From Eubacteriales bacterium (GTDB taxonomy: Bacteria; Bacillota; Clostridia; Oscillospirales; SIG627), in NCBI GenBank assembly GCA_045536965.1, contig JAZSON010000012.1:83889-147888 (forward strand): a stretch of DNA of 64,000 nucleotides. Direction: 5' to 3'. The notes under the pieces were generated by a model. The model was not told where the DNA came from. It saw only the letters and a list, made by a program, of their open reading frames with translations, and made no database searches. How positions within the stretch are numbered: the first letter of the stretch is position 1; every line of letters starts with the position of its first letter. Shown here one piece after another: positions 6,475 through 54,974 of the stretch. The translations under genes were made by a program, and so were the position numbers.

Positions 6475-7392
6475 CTATTTCCCGCCAACGATGCGCTTCG
6501 CTTCCTCGTAGCATTTCTTGCAATAGGCAATATACTCCTCAAGCTGCTTGACTGCATCCTCGCTCCAGAACTGTTCTTCCAGATGGAACGAGCCATCGTA
6601 TCCCTGCTCCAACAAAGCCACGAACAACGGGGTCAAATCTTTGTTGAAACCTTTACCGAGGGGGGCATCGGAAATGTAATTTCCATCCGGCGTTTCATAG
6701 CAATGCTTCTGATAAAAAGACATCGCATTTTCTTTGTTACCACCGAAAGCGTAGGGCAATTCTACCTCGTTTAACCGTTTAAAGGAATAGTAATCCTTGA
6801 TATGTGCGTGAACAATCTTTCCCGCAAACGCCTTGATAACATCGATCGCAGGCTCGTTGACGAAAAGGCTGTTACCGAAATCGGCAACCACTTTGTAATC
6901 CCGATCCAACGCCTCGAAGAAACGCTTGAGCCGTTCAACACCGTTGACCACGATACCTTGAGGCTCGTACACACATTGCACACCGAGGGATGCGGCATAG
7001 TCAAACACTTCACGGCAAACGTAAACGACCGTCGGTAAAACGTCATCAAACGTAACATCGGTTTTAGGATCCACAATGCGAACAAGGGTGTGATGCAAAA
7101 ATTTACAATCGGTAATCCGGCAAATATCTGCATAAAATTTGAGTTCCTCGATTTTCTTCTCGGGATGGATCCAAACGTCGATACCACAGGAAAGACAGCG
7201 CAACTTAACCCCGCGCGCATCGGCATACGCCTTGATCTCTCTTGCGCGTGCAAATGCGTCCTCCTTGGTGGGGAATTTCGAAAACATACTGCTGATCAGC
7301 TCTACCGAATAAAACCCAAGCTCAGCAGCCGAATCAATCGCTTCTTCCACAGATTTTATATAAGGAGGAAATAAAAAATGTCCAAGCTTCAT
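6475..7392 (-). CDS. sugar phosphate isomerase/epimerase-like protein (xylose isomerase-like TIM barrel), tandem paralog 3 of 3
   Basis: 305 aa, opening MKLGHF..PPY..S.EEAID. Its length and conserved blocks match the two upstream paralogs. GAGGTG RBS. Confidence 0.8.
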   Translation of the reverse strand: MKLGHFLFPPYIKSVEEAIDSAAELGFYSVELISSMFSKFPTKEDAFARAREIKAYADARGVKLRCLSCGIDVWIHPEKKIEELKFYADICRITDCKFLHHTLVRIVDPKTDVTFDDVLPTVVYVCREVFDYAASLGVQCVYEPQGIVVNGVERLKRFFEALDRDYKVVADFGNSLFVNEPAIDVIKAFAGKIVHAHIKDYYSFKRLNEVELPYAFGGNKENAMSFYQKHCYETPDGNYISDAPLGKGFNKDLTPLFVALLEQGYDGSFHLEEQFWSEDAVKQLEEYIAYCKKCYEEAKRIVGGK

Positions 7393-7418
7393 ACAAACAC
7401 CTCGTTTGTGTTTTTTCC

Positions 7419-8333
7419 TTATTTTGCTTCAACGATACGCTTTGCCTCCTTGTAGCAACGGTTATAAAAGGCAATACAAGCATTTAATTCCTCGCGGGGA
7501 TCCTCGCTCCAAAACGCATGCTCCAAATGGAAAACACCGTCGTATCCCTGCTCCAGAAGCAAAACAAACAAAGCGACGAAATCATTGACACCCTCGCCTG
7601 CAGGCACGGCAAAAACGTACTGTCCGTCGAGCGTTTCATGGCAACAATTCCGGTAAAAAGCCGCCGCTCTTTCCTTCGAGTTACCGAAGGCATAGGGCAA
7701 AGCGATCTCGTTAAGCCGCCCCGCAAAGCCGCAATCCTTCAAATGCACGTGCGCGATCCTTCCGCGAAACGCCTTGATAAGCTCGGCGGGCGATTCATTC
7801 ACAAAAAGGGTATTGCCAAGATCGGCAACCAACAAAGCCTCCCGATCCAGCGCGTCGAAAAAGCGAAGCAAATTTTTTGCGCCGTTCATAACGTATGCCT
7901 GCGGCTCATAGACGCATTGCACGCCGACGGATGCCGCATAATCAAAAACCTCACGGCAGGCGGGAATGATCCTCGGGAGCGCCTCATCCAAGGGCATCCG
8001 TTTATTTATGTCAAGACAATCGACCACGGTGTGATGTAAAAGCTTGCAATCGGTAATGCGGCAAATATCTGCGTAAAGCTTCAGCTGATCGATTTTCTCT
8101 CTTGCATCCCACGTAAAATCGGCACCGCAGGAAAAGCAGCGCAAAGCGACACCGCGCGCATCAGCATACGCCTTTATTTCTCCCGCGCGGGCAAAAGCAT
8201 CCTCCTTGCTTGAAAAATGCTTAAACATACCGTACGACAGTTCCAAGGAACCCAAGCCCTGCTCGACCGACAGATCGATGGCATCCTCAACGCTTTTGCA
8301 AAACGGCGGAAGATTAAAACACCCAAGCTTCAT
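7419..8333 (-). CDS. sugar phosphate isomerase/epimerase-like protein (xylose isomerase-like TIM barrel), tandem paralog 2 of 3
   Basis: 304 aa from the ATG at 8333 (GAGGTG, 6 nt, ATG). Collinear similarity to both neighbours along its full length, e.g. ...CYKEAKRIVEAK at the C-terminus. Confidence 0.8.
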   Translation of the reverse strand: MKLGCFNLPPFCKSVEDAIDLSVEQGLGSLELSYGMFKHFSSKEDAFARAGEIKAYADARGVALRCFSCGADFTWDAREKIDQLKLYADICRITDCKLLHHTVVDCLDINKRMPLDEALPRIIPACREVFDYAASVGVQCVYEPQAYVMNGAKNLLRFFDALDREALLVADLGNTLFVNESPAELIKAFRGRIAHVHLKDCGFAGRLNEIALPYAFGNSKERAAAFYRNCCHETLDGQYVFAVPAGEGVNDFVALFVLLLEQGYDGVFHLEHAFWSEDPREELNACIAFYNRCYKEAKRIVEAK

Positions 8334-34057: not shown

Positions 34058-34133
34058 TGGTGACCCATCGGAGAGTCGAACTCCGGACACCATGATTAAA
34101 AGTCATGTGCTCTACCTTCTGAGCTAATGAGTC
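34058..34133 (-). tRNA. tRNA-Lys (anticodon UUU), CCA encoded
   Basis: Minus-strand sequence GACTCATTAGCTCAGAAGGTAGAGCACATGACTTTTAATCATGGTGTCCGGAGTTCGACTCTCCGATGGGTCACCA. The acceptor stem pairs 7 bp, the anticodon loop is CTTTTAA, and the T-arm is CGGAG-TTCGACT-CTCCG. Confidence 0.93.
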
Positions 34134-46055: not shown

Positions 46056-46090
46056 CAAAAAACTGCACATCCGTGATGTGCAGTTTTTTT
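46056..46090. terminator. bidirectional intrinsic terminator
   Basis: AAAAAACTGCACATC-cgt-GATGTGCAGTTTTTTT between convergent genes. Confidence 0.8.
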
Positions 46091-47003
46091 ATAGCGGTAA
46101 TATTTCTTTAAAAAACCGTTCCATATTGCCGTGCGCAAACTTTTCGATCCACTCTTCAGAAAAGCCCTTTTCATGTAAAGCGCAAAGCAAATTCTTAATG
46201 TCTCCGCAATTTTTTATGCCTACGGGCAAACAACCGTCGGTGCCGTCAAAATCACTGCCCAAACCAATGTGGTTTTCACCGCCCAACGACAAGAAGTGTG
46301 AAATATGATCAATCACCGTATCCACATTCGCATTTTCTCCTAAAAATGCAGGGTACAAGTTAATACCAACAACACCGCCGCCTCGAATCAGCGCGACAAA
46401 CATCTCATCGGTCAGATTTCGAGGATGGGAACACAAAGTCCGCGCATTGGAATGGGAAGCCAAAACAGGACGAGTCGTTAAGGACAGCACATCCCAAAAT
46501 CCTTGATCGGAAATGTGAGAAACATCCACCGCCATCCCCAATCGGTTCATTTCCGCAACAACCTCACGCCCGAAAGCAGTCAACCCACCGTTATTTCGTG
46601 GTTTTGTCGCCGTGTCGCTTATCTCATTCGGTCCATTCCAAGTAAGCGTCATGGCGCGCACGCCATCATCAAACAACTTATATAACCGCGTGATATCCCC
46701 TCGCAACACCTCGCCCCCCTCCACAGAGAGCATTTTTTTGCGGGAAGCGGTCGTTTCAACATCTGCGCGCGACAAAACCGGTCTAAACATTCCCGTTTTT
46801 TCACTGTAACGCTTATAAAGCAGTTCATACCGCGCGATCGGATCGGTCGTTTCTCCATCCACCCAAATGGCAAATATCTGCGTCCAAGCAAAAAAACCTT
46901 CCATACCCGAAAGATTTACTTCGGTTTGCCCGCCATACAAATCCAAACCGTCTCCCAGCAAATCCAGTGTATCGCAATGAGCATCAAAAATCGGAAAATA
47001 CAT
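46089..47003 (-). CDS. membrane dipeptidase family (M19) protein
   Basis: Opens FDAHCDT at the N-terminus. Also contains VDVSHISD, ASHSNAR and GLGSDFDG blocks. Confidence 0.85.
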   Translation of the reverse strand: MYFPIFDAHCDTLDLLGDGLDLYGGQTEVNLSGMEGFFAWTQIFAIWVDGETTDPIARYELLYKRYSEKTGMFRPVLSRADVETTASRKKMLSVEGGEVLRGDITRLYKLFDDGVRAMTLTWNGPNEISDTATKPRNNGGLTAFGREVVAEMNRLGMAVDVSHISDQGFWDVLSLTTRPVLASHSNARTLCSHPRNLTDEMFVALIRGGGVVGINLYPAFLGENANVDTVIDHISHFLSLGGENHIGLGSDFDGTDGCLPVGIKNCGDIKNLLCALHEKGFSEEWIEKFAHGNMERFFKEILPL

Positions 47004-47018
47004 ACACTTTTTTCTCCT

Positions 47019-47876
47019 TTAAAGACCTTTTTTCTCTTTTTCGGCACGCCCGCCCTTCAAATAAGCGCTGGGCGTCATATTGCAATGCCGAACAAAAGCG
47101 CGATTAAAAGTGCGCAGACTGTCAAAACCAACCTCCGAAGCAATTTCGGTCACACTCCTGCTGCTCGCGGCATCCATGCGGCGACAAGCTTCCGAAACAC
47201 GCAAGGAGTTTACATAACCTCTCAAAGAGATGTGAAGTTTCCCGCTCATAAGGTGAGAAATGTAATATTTGCTCACATGAAGTTGGCGAGAGAGCAAATC
47301 CAAGGACAGAGGTTCTTTGTAATGGTGATTACAGTAGGACAAAATCCGCTTCAGGGACGACATATCGGGCGGATCGCATTTTTCAAGCTCCATTTTCGGC
47401 AAAACTTTCGCCAAAAACGCCGAAAGACACCCTTGCAGAAACTCGGTTTCATACTGATCGCCACCTTCGAATGCTTCAAACAGCATATCGAGTAAAAACA
47501 ATTCCTTTTCTCCCAGCGCTCCCCGCAGAATAGGACAAACAGGCATACGTTGCATAAACACCTGCATAAACATGGCGGTGTATTGGGGCGCAAAAATAAA
47601 AATATCCGCCTCGTTCTCGGCAATATCATTATATGCGTGAACTTGATTGGGGAATGCAATGCTTACATCTCCCGCCTCGAGCAAATAACACTTTGCATCG
47701 ATCACAACCTCAACCTGCCCGGAGCGCACGCAGACCATTTCGACCTGATCATGCAAGTGGGTAATGCAACGCAGATGTGTTTGCCGTTTTTGGCATATAA
47801 AAGGAAACTGCCTGAATTCATAGTATGGATACATAATTTTCTCCATTTGTGCAAAATTTGTCTCGAATATAGCCAT
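47019..47876 (-). CDS. AraC family transcriptional regulator (cupin sensor plus HTH)
   Basis: C-terminal AraC HTH (VTEIASEVGFDSLRTFNRAFVRHCNMTPSAY) and an N-terminal cupin-like domain. It is divergent from 47946..49952. Confidence 0.85.
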   Translation of the reverse strand: MAIFETNFAQMEKIMYPYYEFRQFPFICQKRQTHLRCITHLHDQVEMVCVRSGQVEVVIDAKCYLLEAGDVSIAFPNQVHAYNDIAENEADIFIFAPQYTAMFMQVFMQRMPVCPILRGALGEKELFLLDMLFEAFEGGDQYETEFLQGCLSAFLAKVLPKMELEKCDPPDMSSLKRILSYCNHHYKEPLSLDLLSRQLHVSKYYISHLMSGKLHISLRGYVNSLRVSEACRRMDAASSRSVTEIASEVGFDSLRTFNRAFVRHCNMTPSAYLKGGRAEKEKKGL

Positions 47877-47945
47877 CTTTGTCTTGAATTATAGCATAAA
47901 ATGTCTTAACATACAAGTAGAAATTTAAAATTAGGAGGTTTGTAT

Positions 47946-48770
47946 ATGTCGTTTCCCGTTGCGTTACAACTGTATTCGGTACGCGATGCCATGAAAGCCG
48001 ACTTTTTCGGCACTCTCAAAAAGGTTAAGGATATGGGTTATGACGGGGTTGAATTTGCCGGTTTAATGGGCAACGATCCCCACAAAATCAAATCTGCACT
48101 GGACGAGATCGGACTTGTTCCCGTAGCGGCCCACATCGCCATGGGTGAATTTGATACTGATTTAGACCGCTGTTTGGAAGAAATGATGATCATCGGCGCA
48201 AAATATGTCGTTGTTCCCTCGGTTCCTCAAGAATATCGCCCCGACCTCGGCGGAGATTTCACCAAAGCCTTCGATAAATTCCTCACTATCGGCAAAGCCG
48301 CTAAAGCAAAAGGCTTGACCCTGCTGTATCACAACCATGATTTTGAGTTTATCAAAATCGAAAATAAATACGCCTTGGATCTGCTGTATGAAACACTGCC
48401 CGCAGATCTTCTGCAAACCGAATTGGACACCTGCTGGGTCAATGTCGGCGGAGAAAACCCCGCCGCATACATCCAAAAATACGCCAACCGTTCTCCCGTT
48501 GTGCACATTAAAGATTTTGTCGGTGAAAAAAGCGACAATATGTATGAGCTGATCGGCGAAAAAACCACCGCTCTTCCCCGCAAAGCCATACAAAACTTTG
48601 CTTTCCGTTCAGTCGGTGAGGGAAAACAAGACATTCCCGCCATTTTGGATGCCTGCCGTACCGCAGGCGCATCTTGGTTGATCGTTGAACAGGACCAACC
48701 CACCGAAGGCATCGACCCGCTGACTTGTGCTCAAATGAGCATCACATATTTAAAAAATATTCAAAAATAA
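47946..48770 (+). CDS. sugar phosphate isomerase/epimerase (xylose isomerase-like TIM barrel)
   Basis: 274 aa from the ATG at 47946 (TAGGAGG RBS). Contains QLYSVRD...GYDGVEFAG and LYHNHDFEF blocks. Confidence 0.8.
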   Translation: MSFPVALQLYSVRDAMKADFFGTLKKVKDMGYDGVEFAGLMGNDPHKIKSALDEIGLVPVAAHIAMGEFDTDLDRCLEEMMIIGAKYVVVPSVPQEYRPDLGGDFTKAFDKFLTIGKAAKAKGLTLLYHNHDFEFIKIENKYALDLLYETLPADLLQTELDTCWVNVGGENPAAYIQKYANRSPVVHIKDFVGEKSDNMYELIGEKTTALPRKAIQNFAFRSVGEGKQDIPAILDACRTAGASWLIVEQDQPTEGIDPLTCAQMSITYLKNIQK

Positions 48771-48788
48771 CATAGGAGGACCTAAACC

Positions 48789-49952
48789 ATGACCAAAGAA
48801 AACGATCAATTGAATCAGTTCCAGGAACGCGCAGCCGAAACCGTAATCGACAGCAACAAAAAAATCCGCATCGCCTTTATCGGCTGTGGCTGGATTGCTA
48901 CCTCCCACATCAATGCACTGAAAACAATGAACGATGTCGAAATCGTCGCTGCCGCTGATCTTGTTCCCGGCAAAGCCCAAGCATTCATGGAAAAACATGG
49001 TGTCGAAGGCGTAAAATACTACGGCGCACACACCGAAATGCTGGCCGACAAGTCTCTCAATCTCGATGCTGTTACCATTTGCACCTACAATGCGACCCAT
49101 GCCGTTTGCACCATCGACAGCTTGAACGCAGGTCTGCATGTTCTTTGCGAAAAACCCATGTGTGTCACACTGGATGAAGCCGTTGCCATGAGAAAAGCCG
49201 AAAAGGAAAGCGGTAAAATCCTTTCCATCGGTTTCCAACCCCGCTTCGATGAAAACATGAAAATGATCAAAAAAATCGTTCAATCGGGCGAACTGGGCAA
49301 AATTTACTACGTTCAAACCGGTGGCGGCCGCCGCCATGGCATTCCCACCCCCTACGGTACCTCCTTTATCGAAAAAGATACCGGCGTCGTCGGTGCTTTG
49401 GGTGATATCGGTTGCTATTCTCTCGATATGGTTCTCAACGCCCTTGGCTATCCCAAGCCGTTGACCGTTTCGGGCTATACCTCCGATTTCTTCGGAACCG
49501 ATCCCTCTTATTATAAGCAGCATCCCGAATATGCCGATGTTTTCGGCGTAGATGACTTTGCCGCCGCATTCGTCCGTTTGGAAGGCGACATCATCCTCGA
49601 CTTCCGCATCTCCTGGGCCATGCACATGGACACCCCCGGTGACACCATCATCCTCGGTACCAAGGGTGGTCTTCGCATCCCCTCCACCGAATGCTGGAAC
49701 GGCACCGTCAACAAACCCATGACCATTTACCACGATCTTTGCGGCGAACAGGTTACCACCACCGTGCCGATTCTGCCTCCTCAACCCAGCTTGTTCGCAC
49801 TGAAGATCCGCGCTTTTCTGGATGCCTGCAAGAACGGCACCCCCTCTCCCATCTCTTCGGACGAAATCATCATCAACCAAGCCATCATCGATGGTATCAA
49901 CCGTTCTGCAAAGCTCAAAAAAGAAATCGAGATCGAAATCCCCGGTCTTTGA
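48789..49952 (+). CDS. Gfo/Idh/MocA family oxidoreductase
   Basis: Rossmann motif IRIAFIGCGWIA and the EKPM block (LCEKPMC). 387 aa. GGAGG RBS. Confidence 0.88.
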   Translation: MTKENDQLNQFQERAAETVIDSNKKIRIAFIGCGWIATSHINALKTMNDVEIVAAADLVPGKAQAFMEKHGVEGVKYYGAHTEMLADKSLNLDAVTICTYNATHAVCTIDSLNAGLHVLCEKPMCVTLDEAVAMRKAEKESGKILSIGFQPRFDENMKMIKKIVQSGELGKIYYVQTGGGRRHGIPTPYGTSFIEKDTGVVGALGDIGCYSLDMVLNALGYPKPLTVSGYTSDFFGTDPSYYKQHPEYADVFGVDDFAAAFVRLEGDIILDFRISWAMHMDTPGDTIILGTKGGLRIPSTECWNGTVNKPMTIYHDLCGEQVTTTVPILPPQPSLFALKIRAFLDACKNGTPSPISSDEIIINQAIIDGINRSAKLKKEIEIEIPGL

Positions 49953-49967
49953 TCAAAACAATCATTT

Positions 49968-50001
49968 GGCGTGCCGCGCGCGTGCGGCACGCCAATTTTT
50001 T
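49968..50001 (+). terminator. intrinsic terminator
   Basis: GC-rich stem GGCGTGCCGC...GCGGCACGCC followed by AATTTTTT. Confidence 0.75.
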
Positions 50002-50008
50002 CAAATCA

Positions 50009-50037
50009 AAAAGGAGCAGAAATCTGCTCCTTTTTTC
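50009..50037 (-). terminator. intrinsic terminator of the T-box-controlled gene
   Basis: On the minus strand: AAGGAGCAGA-tttc-TGCTCCTT followed by a T-run, 15 nt after the stop at 50052. Confidence 0.75.
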
Positions 50038-50051
50038 AACTTATATAACTT

Positions 50052-52562
50052 TTAAGCGGTTTCAATTCCCTTGGCATCCTGCAAATTCAGGGTGCGGACG
50101 GCTTCCTCGCGCATCTTGTACTTCATGATCTTGCCTGCGGCATTCATGGGGAAAGAGGTGACGAAGGAAACATATCTGGGCGTTTTATGCTTTGCCATGT
50201 GAGACATCACATATTCCCGAATTTCCTCATCGGTAGAGGTTTCGCCCTCTTTGAGAATGACACAAGCCATGATTTCCTCGCCGTACTGACGGTCGGGAAC
50301 ACCAATAACCTGTACATCGGACACCTTCGGATGGGTATAAATGAAATCTTCGATTTCTTTCGGGTAAATGTTCTCACCGCCGCGAATGATCATATCCTTA
50401 ATACGTCCGGTGATTTTATAGTTTCCATCGGGCAATTTGCGGGCAAGGTCACCGGTATGCAACCAACCGTCCTTATCGATGGCTGCAGCGGTAGCGGCGG
50501 GCATCTTATAATACCCCTTCATAATGTTATATCCCTTGGCAACAAATTCACCGTCCACGTTATCAGGTACTTCCTCGCCCGTTTCGGGATCCACGATCTT
50601 GCAATCGACACCAAAAATGGCGCTGCCGACCGTATTCACACGGGTCTCGATCGAATCGGTGGTTTTGCTCATGGTAGTGGCAGGCGATGCTTCGGTCTGT
50701 CCGTATGTAATACAGATTTCCTTCATGTTCATCTTGTCAACAACCTCTTGCATGACCTTGATGGGACAGGGACTTCCCGCCATGATACCGGTGCGCATGT
50801 GGCTAAAATCGGTTTTTTCAAAATCGGGATGTCCAAGCATGGCAATAAACATCGTCGGAACACCGTGGAATGCAGTGATTTTCTCTTGGTTGATACAGGC
50901 AAGCCCCTTCGACGGAGAGAAGGCGGGAATGGGATACATGGAAACACCGTGTGTCATGGAAGCGGTCATGGCCAACACCATGCCAAAGCAATGGAACATA
51001 GGCACTTGAATCATCATGCGGTCGGCAGTCGACAGATCCATACAGTCGCCAATGGCCTTACCGTTATTGACAACGTTGTAGTGTGTCAACATAACGCCTT
51101 TGGGGAACCCGGTCGTGCCGGAAGTATACTGCATATTGCAAACATCGTTTTTGTTCAGCATGGCAGAACGACGATAAACAGCTTCCACAGGCGTTTTTTC
51201 GGAAAATGCCATGGCTTCCTGCCAAGTCAAACAACCCTTGCGATCCGAATCCACCGTAATAATATTACGCAAGAAAGGCAAACGACGAATGTGCAGAGGT
51301 TTTCCTTTTTCCGATGTCTGCAATTCGGGACACAATTCGTTCATAATAGCAATATAATCCGAATCTTTATATCCGTCGATCATAACAAGCGTATGGGTAT
51401 CCGATTGACGAAGCAAATATTCCGCCTCGTGAATTTTGTATGCCGTATTAACCGTAACCAAAACCGCGCCGATTTTCACGGTTGCCCAAAACGTAATAAA
51501 CCATTGGGGTACATTGGTTGCCCAAATCGCTACATGATCGCCCTGCTTTACACCCAGCGAAATCAAAGCGCGCGCAAAAGTATCCACTTCATCGCGGAAT
51601 TCAGAATAGGTGCGGGTATAGTCCATGGTGGTATATTTAAAAGCAATTTGATCGGGGAATTCTTCTACCATGCGATCCAACAACTGCGGGAAAGTCAGGT
51701 CAATTAAACGCTCTTTCGGCCAGACATATTTACCGGCATGCCTCAAATCGTCCTGCAATCTTCCCGATTCATCGTTTTGCACACCGTATTTTTGCATGAA
51801 ATGAGCAAAATGGGGAAATACTACGCCGGCATCGGTCAAATCAGGCATCCACCGCTTGACCCACTCCAACGTAACATAGCCCTCGAAATTGATAGAGCGC
51901 AGAGCAAGCATCATGGCCTCAAGAGGAAGATCCCCCTCACCCAGCATGCGATATACGATCTGTCCATCCTGCATCACAGAATCTTTAACGTGAACATGCT
52001 TGATGAACGCGCCGAGATTTTGCACGGTTTTTTCCGCAGACTCGCCGAAAAAGCGGTAAGGATGGTGCAAATCCCAAAGAGCACCGACCGCATCACTCTG
52101 CGTCTCTTCCAAAAGCGCCGCCAAGCGAGCAGTATCGGCATATACACCGTTTGTCTCCATAAGCAATGTTACACCGGCCTCTTCTGCAATCGAGGCAAGA
52201 CGGGTCAACTGACGAAGAACGACCGCATCATCCACTTCGGCCATAGGTGCCGCAGAAGCATCTCCCAAAACACGCACATAAGGAGCGCCAAGCATTGCGG
52301 CTGTTTGAATGTAAGCTGTCAACGCTTCGATGTGTGTCTCGTCATCCTCGCCGTCAGACAAACTGCAACCCGAGGAAAGACAAGGGATAGACAACTTATG
52401 CGCCTTCAGATCATGCATAATCTGTTCGCGCGGCGTATTGTTAAATAAATCATTGCCCAATCCGCGGATCTCAATGCCATCCATGCCGAGATCCCTCGCC
52501 ATGGTGAAAACTTCCTTCCACGAATAATTGGGACTGCCTAAGGTTGAAAATGCAATTTTCAT
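50052..52562 (-). CDS. fusion protein: N-terminal xylose isomerase-like TIM barrel plus C-terminal AMP-forming acyl-CoA synthetase/ligase
   Basis: 836 aa from the ATG at 52562 (GGAGAAGGAG RBS). Residues 1-275 form a complete TIM-barrel module (MKIAFSTLG...GMDGIEIRG...LMETNG...HVHVKD...VTLEW). Residues 290-836 carry adenylate-forming motifs: YTSGTTGFPKGVMLTH, ITYGQTEASP, GWLHTGDLA, GRIKDMIIRGGENIYP. Confidence 0.85.
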   Translation of the reverse strand: MKIAFSTLGSPNYSWKEVFTMARDLGMDGIEIRGLGNDLFNNTPREQIMHDLKAHKLSIPCLSSGCSLSDGEDDETHIEALTAYIQTAAMLGAPYVRVLGDASAAPMAEVDDAVVLRQLTRLASIAEEAGVTLLMETNGVYADTARLAALLEETQSDAVGALWDLHHPYRFFGESAEKTVQNLGAFIKHVHVKDSVMQDGQIVYRMLGEGDLPLEAMMLALRSINFEGYVTLEWVKRWMPDLTDAGVVFPHFAHFMQKYGVQNDESGRLQDDLRHAGKYVWPKERLIDLTFPQLLDRMVEEFPDQIAFKYTTMDYTRTYSEFRDEVDTFARALISLGVKQGDHVAIWATNVPQWFITFWATVKIGAVLVTVNTAYKIHEAEYLLRQSDTHTLVMIDGYKDSDYIAIMNELCPELQTSEKGKPLHIRRLPFLRNIITVDSDRKGCLTWQEAMAFSEKTPVEAVYRRSAMLNKNDVCNMQYTSGTTGFPKGVMLTHYNVVNNGKAIGDCMDLSTADRMMIQVPMFHCFGMVLAMTASMTHGVSMYPIPAFSPSKGLACINQEKITAFHGVPTMFIAMLGHPDFEKTDFSHMRTGIMAGSPCPIKVMQEVVDKMNMKEICITYGQTEASPATTMSKTTDSIETRVNTVGSAIFGVDCKIVDPETGEEVPDNVDGEFVAKGYNIMKGYYKMPAATAAAIDKDGWLHTGDLARKLPDGNYKITGRIKDMIIRGGENIYPKEIEDFIYTHPKVSDVQVIGVPDRQYGEEIMACVILKEGETSTDEEIREYVMSHMAKHKTPRYVSFVTSFPMNAAGKIMKYKMREEAVRTLNLQDAKGIETA

Positions 52563-52583
52563 ACTAAACTCCTTCTCCGAGAC

Positions 52584-52839
52584 AAAAAAATCTCGGAAAT
52601 CTAAATTTCCGAGAGACGAAATAACATATGTATTCCGCGGTACCACTCTACTTGGCAAAAAATGCCCGCTCCATGGTGTCAAAAACACCCTCTTCTTATA
52701 ACGGAAAGAACCCCGTCCGCTCCTACTAACGGTTCAGAGCGACGGCTCAAGGGCGAGAACGCAAATCCCTTCCGTACCGCTTCACACCAAACAGCGGCTC
52801 TCTGTAACGGACAAAATAGGCGTTTTCCCTATCACAGCC
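52584..52839 (-). promoter_or_regulatory. T-box riboswitch leader (terminator/antiterminator), tentative Leu (CUC) specifier
   Basis: Elements read on the minus strand:
- K-turn: GGC-TGT-GA / GA-GCC.
- AG bulge: AGAGA (52803-52799).
- Distal loop: TTTGGTGTGAA.
- Two CCGTTA F-box-like motifs (52732-52727 and 52704-52699).
- T-box core: AGAGTGGTACCGCGG (52649-52635).
- The antiterminator 3' strand CTCT is shared with the terminator TCTCGGAAAT-ttag-ATTTCCGAGA plus T7 (52614-52584).
- Candidate specifier: CUC at 52757-52755. Confidence 0.85.
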
Positions 52840-52850
52840 TTTGTACGAGC

Positions 52851-52879
52851 ATAATAGCAGAATTATCTCTTTTTGTCAA
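52851..52879 (-). promoter_or_regulatory. sigma-A type promoter driving the T-box leader
   Basis: On the minus strand: TTGACA (52879-52874), 17-nt spacer, TATTAT (52856-52851). Confidence 0.65.
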
Positions 52880-52908
52880 GTGCTTTTTCATTTTTTTCTT
52901 TTCGGCAT

Positions 52909-52948
52909 AAAAAACACCGCCGTCGGAGAACAAATGTCCCGACAGCGG
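52909..52948 (-). terminator. intrinsic terminator after the 52962..54875 gene
   Basis: On the minus strand: a 10-bp stem CCGCTGTCGG...CCGACGGCGG followed by TGTTTTTT. It isolates the T-box unit transcriptionally. Confidence 0.75.
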
Positions 52949-52961
52949 CAAACATTTTTAT

Positions 52962-54875
52962 TTAAACACGGGAAGGTCTCGGCGCTCTTTTCAAGGTATC
53001 GATCATCCAACCGATATCGGCCGCCGATTCTGCTTGCGGCTCAATGCTCTGCAAATAAGCAAACATCTCTTGCAAAGCATTTTCTGCCCCGTCGGCATCG
53101 TCTTTTTCACAAGCAATGACAAAATCAGCAAATCGAATGACATGACCGACATGGAGCAAAAGATAAAGAAAAGAATCTTTTTGCGATGCACTTGCGCTGT
53201 CATACGCCGCAAAAATGCATTTTTGCGCGGCCATAGCCAACGCTTTTGCATGCGCGGCGCGATCGGCGCGGGAGGGTGCTTCGGGCGCTACGGCCTCCTG
53301 CGGGAGAAAAGCGTCCGAAACGGCGGCAAGGTATGTCTTGACCCATTCGCCGTACTGACCAAAGGCCGCATGATAATAAGAGTCACAAACATCTTCGAAA
53401 GAGCGCGTTGCATCCCAAAGCCCCGCCGCCATGGCATACATCGGCAGACAAGTGGGAAATGCCACGCGTTGCATCTGGCAAGAAACCATGCCGTTTAAGC
53501 CGAGTTTTGGCAAACTACACATATCGGCATGCAAAATTTTGGCAGAAAACGTGTATCCGGGATCATAAACATGGTTCCACATCAAATGATAATCAAAATC
53601 AAAACTGTCGCCACTGAAATTTTCTTTCCATTTGTTCAAACGCGCAACATTTTCGCCCACCGCCTTAGGTGCCACCACCTTGTTGCGAACATAAGGCGAA
53701 AGCTCATAACGTTCGTTTTGGTCAAAATCGGCATACGGTTTAAGATAACTGCGGCTAATGGGCGCAAACATCAAAACAAAGCGGTCGGGATTTTTTATTT
53801 TTTCAACCTGCGGTTCCCACAAAAGATCGGTGTAAACCAAGAAAACAACGCGGGTATCCACTGCGGCTTCCACCATTTTTGCATCCAACTCATTCAGCAT
53901 CAAAACATACCAATCGGCAGGTGTTTTTTTTGCACACGCATCGCATTCGCAATGAGCATTCCAACTGTCTGCCAACCAGAAATGCAAGTGCGTCACCTCG
54001 GGATGCTTTTCACAGTACCCTACGATAGCATCCAACATAATACCGCGCGCCTTGGGATTGGAATAGCAAATGTTGGTATTTAAGGCAATCCCTTCAAACA
54101 ATTCTCTTTTGCCGTTCACCTCGGCCATGTATGTTTTATATTCGTCGGAAATTTCTCCCTCATACTTGACCCAATCGGTACCCGGAACGCCAAACGGCTC
54201 ACAAGTCCAGCCATGCCCCGCGGCGTGATACTGCAAAGAGCGTTTATTTGCCTCATAGACAACCGAAGCGTTGAGCGCATCTATCTCATCCCTCGAAAGA
54301 GGCGTAGCAGCGTAAAGAGGATTGCCGCGATGGGAATACCAGCGGTCATAAAAGCAAAACGGGGTGAAAAATTGGGTGAAATATGTATTCATACCGACGC
54401 GGGGCAACCATGTCAGCATGTTTTTCACATGAAGATAGGAAGCCGCGCCCTCAATACAAACACCGCGATGACGGCTGGTGGGGACGTAGGAAAGAGATAC
54501 GGTATGTTTTTCGGCAAGCTTTGCGGGAATCACATCTCCGTCGTCTCCGGGGCGAACCCAATCAAAACCAAGCGCGTGCAAATAACGGTAAACAGCAATC
54601 AGCACGGCTCGATTGTTTGTACCCGTAATGATGCCGCAAAAATCTTTCACCTGCACCGAAATACCGTCATCCGACACCGAATCAGCAACGCAGGGCAACG
54701 AAAAGGCTTGGTCGCGTCCAATCCATAACACGTTTTTTTCTTCCGCCCTATAGGCATCACGAGACAAGACGGCAATGTCCAGATGGCGGTCGACCCGCAA
54801 AAGAAAAGCAACCAATTCGTCCACGGCGTAGACCACGGTAGGATGGTTACCGATACGCGCTATTTTGATCAATGT
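52962..54875 (-). CDS. hypothetical cytoplasmic protein, possibly glycoside-hydrolase-like
   Basis: An ORF of about 637 aa with no signal peptide. The start is uncertain: TTG at 54881 or 54875, after GGGGTG. I have a vague memory of DUF4838-type proteins; not verified. Confidence 0.55.
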   Translation of the reverse strand, partial: TLIKIARIGNHPTVVYAVDELVAFLLRVDRHLDIAVLSRDAYRAEEKNVLWIGRDQAFSLPCVADSVSDDGISVQVKDFCGIITGTNNRAVLIAVYRYLHALGFDWVRPGDDGDVIPAKLAEKHTVSLSYVPTSRHRGVCIEGAASYLHVKNMLTWLPRVGMNTYFTQFFTPFCFYDRWYSHRGNPLYAATPLSRDEIDALNASVVYEANKRSLQYHAAGHGWTCEPFGVPGTDWVKYEGEISDEYKTYMAEVNGKRELFEGIALNTNICYSNPKARGIMLDAIVGYCEKHPEVTHLHFWLADSWNAHCECDACAKKTPADWYVLMLNELDAKMVEAAVDTRVVFLVYTDLLWEPQVEKIKNPDRFVLMFAPISRSYLKPYADFDQNERYELSPYVRNKVVAPKAVGENVARLNKWKENFSGDSFDFDYHLMWNHVYDPGYTFSAKILHADMCSLPKLGLNGMVSCQMQRVAFPTCLPMYAMAAGLWDATRSFEDVCDSYYHAAFGQYGEWVKTYLAAVSDAFLPQEAVAPEAPSRADRAAHAKALAMAAQKCIFAAYDSASASQKDSFLYLLLHVGHVIRFADFVIACEKDDADGAENALQEMFAYLQSIEPQAESAADIGWMIDTLKRAPRPSRV

Positions 54876-54974
54876 CAACACCCCTTATTTTTTGTATGCC
54901 AAGTATATCAATATTTTTTTACCCTGTCAAGTGCCGCATAACCTTGAAAATCTTGTGAACAAAAGGTGAAACCC

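Follow-up and report, generated by a model that had tools for sequence, protein, structure and literature searches.

A T-box riboswitch that reads leucine tRNA precedes a gene in which a xylose-isomerase-like TIM barrel is fused to an AMP-forming acyl-CoA synthetase, on the minus strand of a 64-kb stretch of contig JAZSON010000012.1 from a Eubacteriales bacterium (assembly GCA_045536965.1; the whole stretch is hereafter the window). The RNA is an ordinary member of Rfam family RF00230 and of the Leu class of T-boxes. Its target is a new and very widespread member of the T-box regulon, within the literature searched. Surveys of T-box regulons list synthetases, biosynthesis genes and transporters as targets, and our literature search found nothing linking T-boxes with acyl-CoA ligases, isovalerate or the VorB-type 2-oxoacid:ferredoxin oxidoreductase (VOR), with a brief earlier mention remaining conceivable. 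This agrees with a preliminary description of the same DNA, made from the sequence without database searches, in which the fusion was not recognised as a regulon member. The reading we favour, as a probable one that leaves room for considerable doubt, is that the ligase half of the fusion activates isovalerate and thereby opens a route that salvages this acid to leucine.

The leader matches RF00230 over the full length of the model (cmscan against Rfam; positions 52844-52609, minus strand, model positions 1-219, E=6.7e-23). Its score of 108.0 bits passes the gathering score of 93, the check that the preliminary description had named beforehand for its T-box call. The kink-turn of Stem I, the specifier loop, the AG bulge and the distal loop all align to the model. 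The AGAGA bulge, the distal loop GUUUGGUGUGAA and the core AGAGUGGUACCGCGG are read directly in the sequence, as reported earlier, and so is the promoter TTGACA-17-TATTAT, which also has an extended -10 element (Table 1). Two CCGTTA motifs had been taken for F-boxes: the second (52704-52699) does align to the F-box, but the first (52732-52727) falls in the loop of Stem II, beside its AGUA. The asserted mutual exclusivity of antiterminator and terminator likewise holds in part, in that competing pairs exist, but the two structures share merely 3-4 nt (CUCU at 52615-52612 against UCUC at 52614-52611). These shared nucleotides make up the terminator pairs beside the U tract, which are important for termination. 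The end of the U tract lies 5 nt ahead of the ribosome-binding site GGAGAAGGAG, and the earlier figure of 20 nt for this distance was wrong. Both flanking terminators were correctly described, as the hairpins with their U runs fold far better than shuffled sequence (z=-3.8 for 52900-52955 and z=-5.8 for 50000-50045). The gene downstream of the fusion gene lies on the opposite strand; because of this and the presence of both terminators, the transcription unit is monocistronic. We consider it nearly certain that the element is a functional Leu T-box, and highly likely that it regulates the fusion gene by attenuation.

The identity of the specifier is supported by alignment, folding and comparison of orthologous leaders. 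The RF00230 alignment sets GUU-CUC-G opposite GAA-a-uuc-a of the model, placing CUC directly 5' of CCCU, the closing strand of the specifier loop, and in the minimum-energy fold of Stem I the letters CUCG form the unpaired 3' side of this loop. In a first set of orthologs, 80 loci from species-representative genomes, the T-box core immediately precedes the fusion gene in 25 loci and stands about 1.5 kb upstream, ahead of an intervening gene, in 11 more. Among 35 aligned leaders, 19 of the 20 predicted pairs of Stem I show compensatory changes, and in the specifier columns 32 sequences have CUC, two have CUG and the last has CUC offset by one column. The helix just 3' of the codon alternates between GGGG:CCCC and GGAA:UUCC, a covariation that fixes the register of the specifier. 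Taking the window together with the 36 genome loci (n=37), CUC occurs in 34 leaders and CUG in two; the leader of L040, which is longer, yields no assigned specifier. An independent second set of about 20 metagenome leaders has CUC in every one that could be parsed. No non-Leu specifier, and in particular no GUN (Val), was seen among the roughly 57 orthologous leaders of both sets. Since the exchanges between CUC and CUG are synonymous and no other amino acid is specified in these leaders, the assignment to leucine, tentative in the preliminary description, is secure.

The UGGU bulge, which predicts a tRNA with discriminator A73, is equally stable: it was found in all leader cores of both sets but one, so that the comparison of orthologs proposed earlier found both the CUC triplet and the bulge conserved. 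Bacterial tRNA-Leu carries A73. The sole tRNA of the window is a tRNA-Lys(UUU) at 34058-34133 on the minus strand. The one leader with a different bulge (L116, at about 890) combines a CUC specifier with UGGA, which would mismatch an A73 discriminator.

The fusion reported in the preliminary description was recovered as an open reading frame of 836 amino acids (52562-50052) with the Pfam domains AP_endonuc_2 (residues 21-237), AMP-binding (296-685) and AMP-binding_C (736-811). Its ligase half (PF00501, 314.7 bits; PF13193, 67.1 bits) has the complete signature of the ANL superfamily, with N- and C-domains, motifs A3, A5 and A8 and the A10 lysine; the motifs YTSGTTGFPKG, YGQTE and GRIKDMIIRGGENIYP and the A10 lysine, K811, are invariant among homologs. 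Among NCBIfam families PRK12583 comes nearest, its 695 bits falling short of the cutoff of 832, and MbcS (NF047394) is absent from the 25 best NCBIfam families of the fusion. The TIM barrel scores far above the Pfam threshold of 31.1 bits for PF01261, and its metal ligands E136, D164, H191 and E233 (E-D-H-E) are invariant among homologs; it looks catalytic. An AlphaFold2 model of this domain is confident (predicted local distance difference test, pLDDT, 93.9), and Foldseek aligns it with ketose 3-epimerases, IolI, Art22 and AsbF at TM-scores of 0.70-0.79 and identities of 20% or less. The best NCBIfam match is FrlC, with 49 bits against a cutoff of 305, and no equivalog-level match was found to the characterised PF01261 enzymes FrlC, IolO, Hyi, IolE and AsbF. 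Fold and profile searches thus reach the superfamily level, and for this reason homology does not reveal the reaction; the barrel probably acts on the substrate or the product of the ligase. A role as fructosamine epimerase was rejected, given the low FrlC score and the lack of kinase or deglycase genes nearby. The full-length AlphaFold model is poor (pLDDT 65, predicted TM-score 0.42), so that domain packing or channelling is not readable from it.

The deposited protein, P0001, has 876 amino acids, 40 more than the 836-residue frame, and its homologs have 836-843; the longest mechanical open reading frame of the gene starts at GTG 52688. We infer from length alone that the deposited start codon was placed inside the T-box leader, an annotation that would hide the riboswitch.

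Table 1. Features of the riboswitch-controlled fusion gene and its flanks (window coordinates)
Feature	Position	Strand	Basis
Sigma-70-type promoter TTGACA-17 nt-TATTAT, TG-extended -10	52851..52879	-	11/12 matches
T-box leader: Stem I, Stem II, IIA/B, Stem III, antiterminator	52609..52844	-	RF00230, 108 bits vs gathering score 93
Stem I AG bulge AGAGA	52799..52803	-	Sequence and RF00230 alignment; column at least 90% conserved among aligned leaders
Stem I distal loop GUUUGGUGUGAA, tRNA-elbow platform	52781..52792	-	Sequence and RF00230 alignment
Specifier codon CUC (Leu), then purine G at 52754	52755..52757	-	RF00230 alignment; unpaired in minimum-free-energy fold; column CUC/CUG in orthologs
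F-box CCGUUA	52699..52704	-	Aligned to model CGUUA after Stem IIA/B
T-box core AGAGUGGUACCGCGG	52635..52649	-	Sequence and RF00230 alignment
Antiterminator with T-box sequence	52612..52649	-	RF00230 alignment, model positions 187-216
UGGU bulge, predicted partner of tRNA 3' end ACCA	52642..52645	-	RF00230 alignment
Intrinsic terminator UCUCGGAAAU / AUUUCCGAGA and U7	52584..52614	-	10-bp hairpin 52614-52591, then U7
Ribosome-binding site GGAGAAGGAG, 6 nt 5' of ATG 52562	52569..52578	-	Read from sequence
TIM-barrel::acyl-CoA-synthetase coding sequence, 836 aa, ATG 52562	50052..52562	-	Pfam; 73-79% identical full-length homologs
Xylose-isomerase-like TIM barrel, aa 1 to ~260	51783..52562	-	PF01261, 103.6 bits; E136, D164, H191, E233
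AMP-forming acyl-CoA-synthetase domain, aa ~285-836	50055..51710	-	Pfam AMP-binding and AMP-binding_C
Upstream gene's terminator	52909..52948	-	-21.9 kcal/mol, z=-3.8, then U6
Fusion gene's terminator	50009..50037	-	-18.2 kcal/mol, z=-5.8, then U5

As to how widespread the architecture is and whether its orthologs carry T-boxes, both asked earlier, matches to the full-length fusion come from at least 596 species genomes, and a T-box is present at 36 of the 80 loci examined. Carriers among the matches listed include Oscillospiraceae, Ruminococcus, Lachnospiraceae, Christensenellales and Peptococcaceae/Dehalobacter, besides others, and more than 120 clusters formed at 90% identity match the window protein along its entire length with 73-79% identity. 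A search with the TIM domain against 1.84 billion representative proteins recovered many stand-alone TIM proteins of about 270 amino acids and 30-46% identity. A scan of metagenome loci with a 10-sequence alignment found about 25 in which a stand-alone ligase directly precedes a stand-alone TIM gene, the reverse of the order in the fusion (among them L088-L093, L099, L101, L102, L105-L111, L120, L127, L151 and L161). The stand-alone ligases are 55-61% identical to the ligase domain of the fusion, and a Leu (CUC) T-box heads six of these split pairs. Because the pair recurs both fused and as adjacent genes, and in both forms behind Leu T-boxes, TIM barrel and ligase are a conserved functional pair. 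Locus L078 has a separate TIM frame ahead of the ligase frame, whether through a genuine split or through a frameshift.

A third protein accompanies the pair in some loci. In 12 of them (L069, L070, L072, L075, L076, L079, L089-L091, L099, L127 and L152) the TIM/ligase module is followed by an Amidohydro_2 protein of about 265 amino acids. NCBIfam offers no match to it, the uncharacterised BB4693 (3irs) is the solved structure nearest to it, and its family takes in non-oxidative decarboxylases and hydratases. Other neighbours of the stand-alone TIM genes that look conserved are housekeeping genes (uppS, cdsA, dxr, rseP, ispG, guaB and pepF).

In most orthologs, including the one in the window, the neighbouring genes are unrelated. 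A diverged clade (L063-L080, 60-63% identity) differs in that its Leu T-box operon begins with a LeuA-like gene: in 11 diverged orthologs the order is T-box(CUC), leuA-like gene, fusion gene, with the two genes overlapping or a few bases apart. The LeuA-like protein has HMGL-like and LeuA_dimer domains and matches isopropylmalate synthase (IPMS) models best, with 336 bits where the cutoff is 532. Several of these operons run on along the same strand through ilvE, a P-loop-like protein, a 2x[4Fe-4S] protein, VorB and the beta and gamma subunits of a 2-oxoacid:ferredoxin oxidoreductase. The ilvE product (NF009897, 507 bits, cutoff 307) and VorB (NF005507, 537 bits, cutoff 399) both exceed their cutoffs; the delta subunit is the 2x[4Fe-4S] protein, of 75 amino acids. 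The NCBIfam name of the NF005507-type neighbour is 3-methyl-2-oxobutanoate (2-oxoisovalerate) dehydrogenase subunit VorB. Conversion of isovalerate to leucine needs three activities, a ligase, a VOR-type oxidoreductase and a branched-chain aminotransferase, and the content of these operons therefore supports salvage; ligase, VorDBA(C) and IlvE are all encoded in the operons of L064, L071, L075, L070 and L080. In L152 the fusion and Amidohydro_2 genes adjoin vor genes. The P-loop protein between ilvE and vor has 222 amino acids (L064, 7618-8286, with homologs in L071, L075 and L079) and gives a borderline CbiA/MinD-like Pfam match and no NCBIfam match.

Two loci carry a second T-box, whose specifier is AUC (Ile): L069, at 7644-7895 (93.6 bits), and L079, at about 7400-7700. 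The gene behind it, two genes downstream of the Leu T-box operon, encodes a helix-turn-helix-cupin domain fused to an MbcS-like acyl-CoA synthetase (756-794 amino acids; the L079 paralog scores 438 bits against the NF047394 cutoff of 850). MbcS-like genes and the fusion gene also stand in one row in L162 and L158. A minus-strand search for further Ile or Val T-boxes near MbcS-like genes found none beyond those of L069 and L079. The MbcS of S. aureus activates 2-methylbutyrate and isobutyrate and handles isovalerate poorly (PMC10026030), which leaves isovalerate for a different ligase. The arrangement in L069 and L079 suggests T-box control of 2-methylbutyrate activation for the synthesis of isoleucine. 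The pairing of Ile T-box with MbcS-like enzyme and of Leu T-box with TIM-ligase is the pattern expected if each T-box controls the activation of its own branched acid.

These observations can be joined in the following model. The anticodon GAG of uncharged tRNA-Leu would pair with CUC in Stem I, and the free ACCA end of the tRNA would pair with UGGU and stabilise the antiterminator. The antiterminator would remove the lowest pairs of the terminator, and the fusion gene would be transcribed. The ligase domain would then convert isovalerate, and possibly other short branched acids, to isovaleryl-CoA, which the VorB-type oxidoreductase would reductively carboxylate to 2-oxoisocaproate; IlvE would transaminate the latter to leucine. 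The fusion gene would thus provide the entry step of a leucine salvage induced by leucine starvation. Placing ligase, VOR and IlvE together with leuA behind a switch that answers to uncharged tRNA-Leu argues for the anabolic direction. The idea of isovalerate salvage, already put forward in the preliminary description, gains support from the Leu T-box operons with leuA-like, ilvE and vor genes and from the MbcS-like paralog behind an Ile T-box, the function itself being a prediction. We rate the full model from isovalerate to leucine as probable, well short of the confidence we place in the riboswitch.

A number of points weigh against this model. The substrate of the ligase is deduced only from its regulation and its neighbours, and the domain reaches the curated cutoff of no NCBIfam family. 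The genes vor and ilvE are adjacent to the fusion or split genes in only about six of the 162 loci compared, and a leuA-like gene in only 16 of them. In the 64-kb window the gene stands alone, as tblastn found no homologs of leuA, ilvE, vor or Amidohydro_2 there, and no tRNA-Leu lies within the window. About half of the orthologs have neither an upstream T-box nor another Rfam riboswitch: scanning with Rfam detected none at 14 orthologous loci that lack a T-box, nor at L070, L071, L075 and L077, the group-2 loci without one. Broad specificity is common among VorB-type enzymes and short-chain ligases, so that isobutyrate may be the acid activated, to be carried through 2-oxoisovalerate to LeuA. 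A plain isovalerate ligase needs no TIM or Amidohydro_2 partner, and the strict association with these proteins suggests that the substrate is perhaps first isomerised, dehydrated or decarboxylated. It is mainly this strict link of TIM barrel and Amidohydro_2 protein to the ligase that keeps other explanations open.

One such explanation takes the breadth of the enzymes at face value: the fusion would be a ligase for isobutyrate or for branched acids in general, 2-oxoisovalerate made by VOR would feed LeuA, and the T-box would reflect demand for a leucine precursor. The fusion gene does directly follow the leuA-like gene in 16 loci, and the neighbouring oxidoreductase bears the name of a 3-methyl-2-oxobutanoate dehydrogenase subunit. 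Yet regulation is strictly by Leu and never by Val in the leaders surveyed, ilvE and VOR alone suffice to turn isovaleryl-CoA into leucine, and the loci also hold MbcS-like paralogs, with isobutyrate and 2-methylbutyrate as the substrates of their S. aureus relative (PMC10026030). We consider this explanation unlikely. No more probable is a new route in which TIM barrel, ligase, Amidohydro_2 protein and LeuA-like protein together turn some precursor that is not isovalerate into isovaleryl-CoA or 2-oxoisocaproate. One possible version has a hydroxy-dicarboxylic acid, made by the LeuA-like protein, dehydrated by the TIM barrel, decarboxylated by the Amidohydro_2 protein and then activated with CoA; such a route may bypass LeuCD and LeuB and end in a ferredoxin-dependent carboxylation in anaerobic Clostridia. 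It would account for the strict coupling of TIM barrel and synthetase and for the Amidohydro_2 protein that follows them in 12 loci, whose family has decarboxylases of the non-oxidative kind and hydratases. It would also fit the dehydratase AsbF (3dx5, 87 bits) being among the best solved relatives of the TIM profile. The LeuA-like protein, encoded next to or overlapping the fusion gene, lies below every IPMS equivalog cutoff (336 against 532), but it keeps the LeuA regulatory domain and matches IPMS best, as an ordinary leuA product under a Leu T-box would. None of leuB, leuC and leuD was seen in the 162 loci, a negative that covers neighbourhoods and not whole genomes. Against the route, moreover, most loci, the window included, have TIM barrel and synthetase alone, with neither LeuA-like nor Amidohydro_2 protein, and the module has no conserved reductase or dehydrogenase.

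The ligase could also act to spare leucine, if isovaleryl-CoA made from external isovalerate primed iso-odd branched-chain fatty acids whenever leucine was scarce. The ligase step would be identical, and MbcS offers a precedent in which a branched acid is converted to the acyl-CoA primer of FabH (PMC10026030). We regard this as very unlikely, as co-transcription with leuA-like and ilvE genes under a starvation-induced switch points to amino acid synthesis, and the conserved neighbours in the loci compared include no fab or lipid genes. That the T-box arose by chance or is in decay, and that the gene is unrelated to leucine, could be suspected from the half of orthologs that have no T-box. The complete match to the model at an E-value of 6.7e-23, the intact promoter and terminator and, across about 57 loci of fused and unfused arrangement, the covariation and the unchanging Leu specifier leave this notion a negligible probability, and the comparative data effectively refute it.

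Set beside the Leu T-boxes of Firmicutes (ilv-leu and leuS of B. subtilis, leuA of Clostridia; PMC2494555), the window leader shares all RF00230 modules, the UGGU bulge and the competition between terminator and antiterminator, and its CUC specifier obeys the T-box 'C-rule' (PMC7778990). It differs in the small overlap of 3-4 nt between the competing structures and in a specifier loop that lacks the usual AGUA/GAA letters of the S-turn (GGGAAAAC ... GUU-CUCG). Its target differs as well, being neither a tRNA synthetase nor a classical biosynthetic gene nor a transporter. The MbcS of S. aureus (PMC10026030) resembles the fusion as an AMP-forming synthetase, and for the fusion too a short branched acid from the environment is the proposed substrate. 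The fusion ligase, however, belongs to another subfamily, with PRK12583 closest, is tied to a TIM barrel and regulated by tRNA-Leu, and has amino acid synthesis as its proposed purpose, whereas MbcS supplies lipid primers.

The closest metabolic parallel is found in the rumen, and many hosts of the fusion are Ruminococcus or Oscillospiraceae from rumen and gut. Rumen anaerobes were reportedly found by Allison and Bryant in the 1960s to carboxylate isovalerate reductively to leucine, and the three activities needed for this route are those encoded in the five operons named above. To our knowledge, this classical work named no activating enzyme, regulation or TIM-barrel partner. A structural parallel is offered by AsbF and AsbC of petrobactin synthesis, in which a metal-dependent xylose-isomerase-like TIM barrel is likewise paired with an adenylate-forming enzyme; AsbC is an AMP ligase that adenylates the product of AsbF. 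Among solved structures, AsbF (3dx5) ranks second against the TIM profile, at 87 bits. The two barrels are about 17% identical and the siderophore context is unrelated, so that the likeness is one of superfamily level and no evidence of shared chemistry.

The Leu-specific T-box acts as a built-in label, 'makes leucine available', on an enzyme that is widespread, conserved and unannotated. Together with the co-transcribed leuA-like, ilvE and vorDBA genes it turns the vague annotation 'AMP-binding protein' into a specific, testable assignment. The fusion is thereby a gene candidate for a route that has been known for some sixty years, and whose activating enzyme and regulation were not tied to genes in the literature searched. 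The T-boxes of Clostridia may police more than de novo synthesis and extend to the salvage of branched-chain acids, a pattern relevant to how gut and rumen communities cross-feed on branched-chain fatty acids. For enzymology, the obligate TIM-barrel partner is a puzzle behind which new chemistry may lie.

Some observations concern the surroundings of the gene. In L003 a cobalamin riboswitch (RF00174, 75.7 bits, 6609-6798) lies just downstream of the fusion gene. In the window, the frame upstream of the fusion gene and on the same strand (52962-54881, 639 amino acids) has its own terminator and no NCBIfam match at E<=1e-3. Downstream, the opposite strand encodes a Gfo/Idh/MocA-type oxidoreductase (48789-49952) and an IolE-like TIM barrel (47940-48770), and an AraC-type regulator is found at 47019-47876 on the minus strand. 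The genes at 46089-49995 look like an unrelated cluster of sugar or inositol type, which ends in a strong bidirectional hairpin at 49966-49995.

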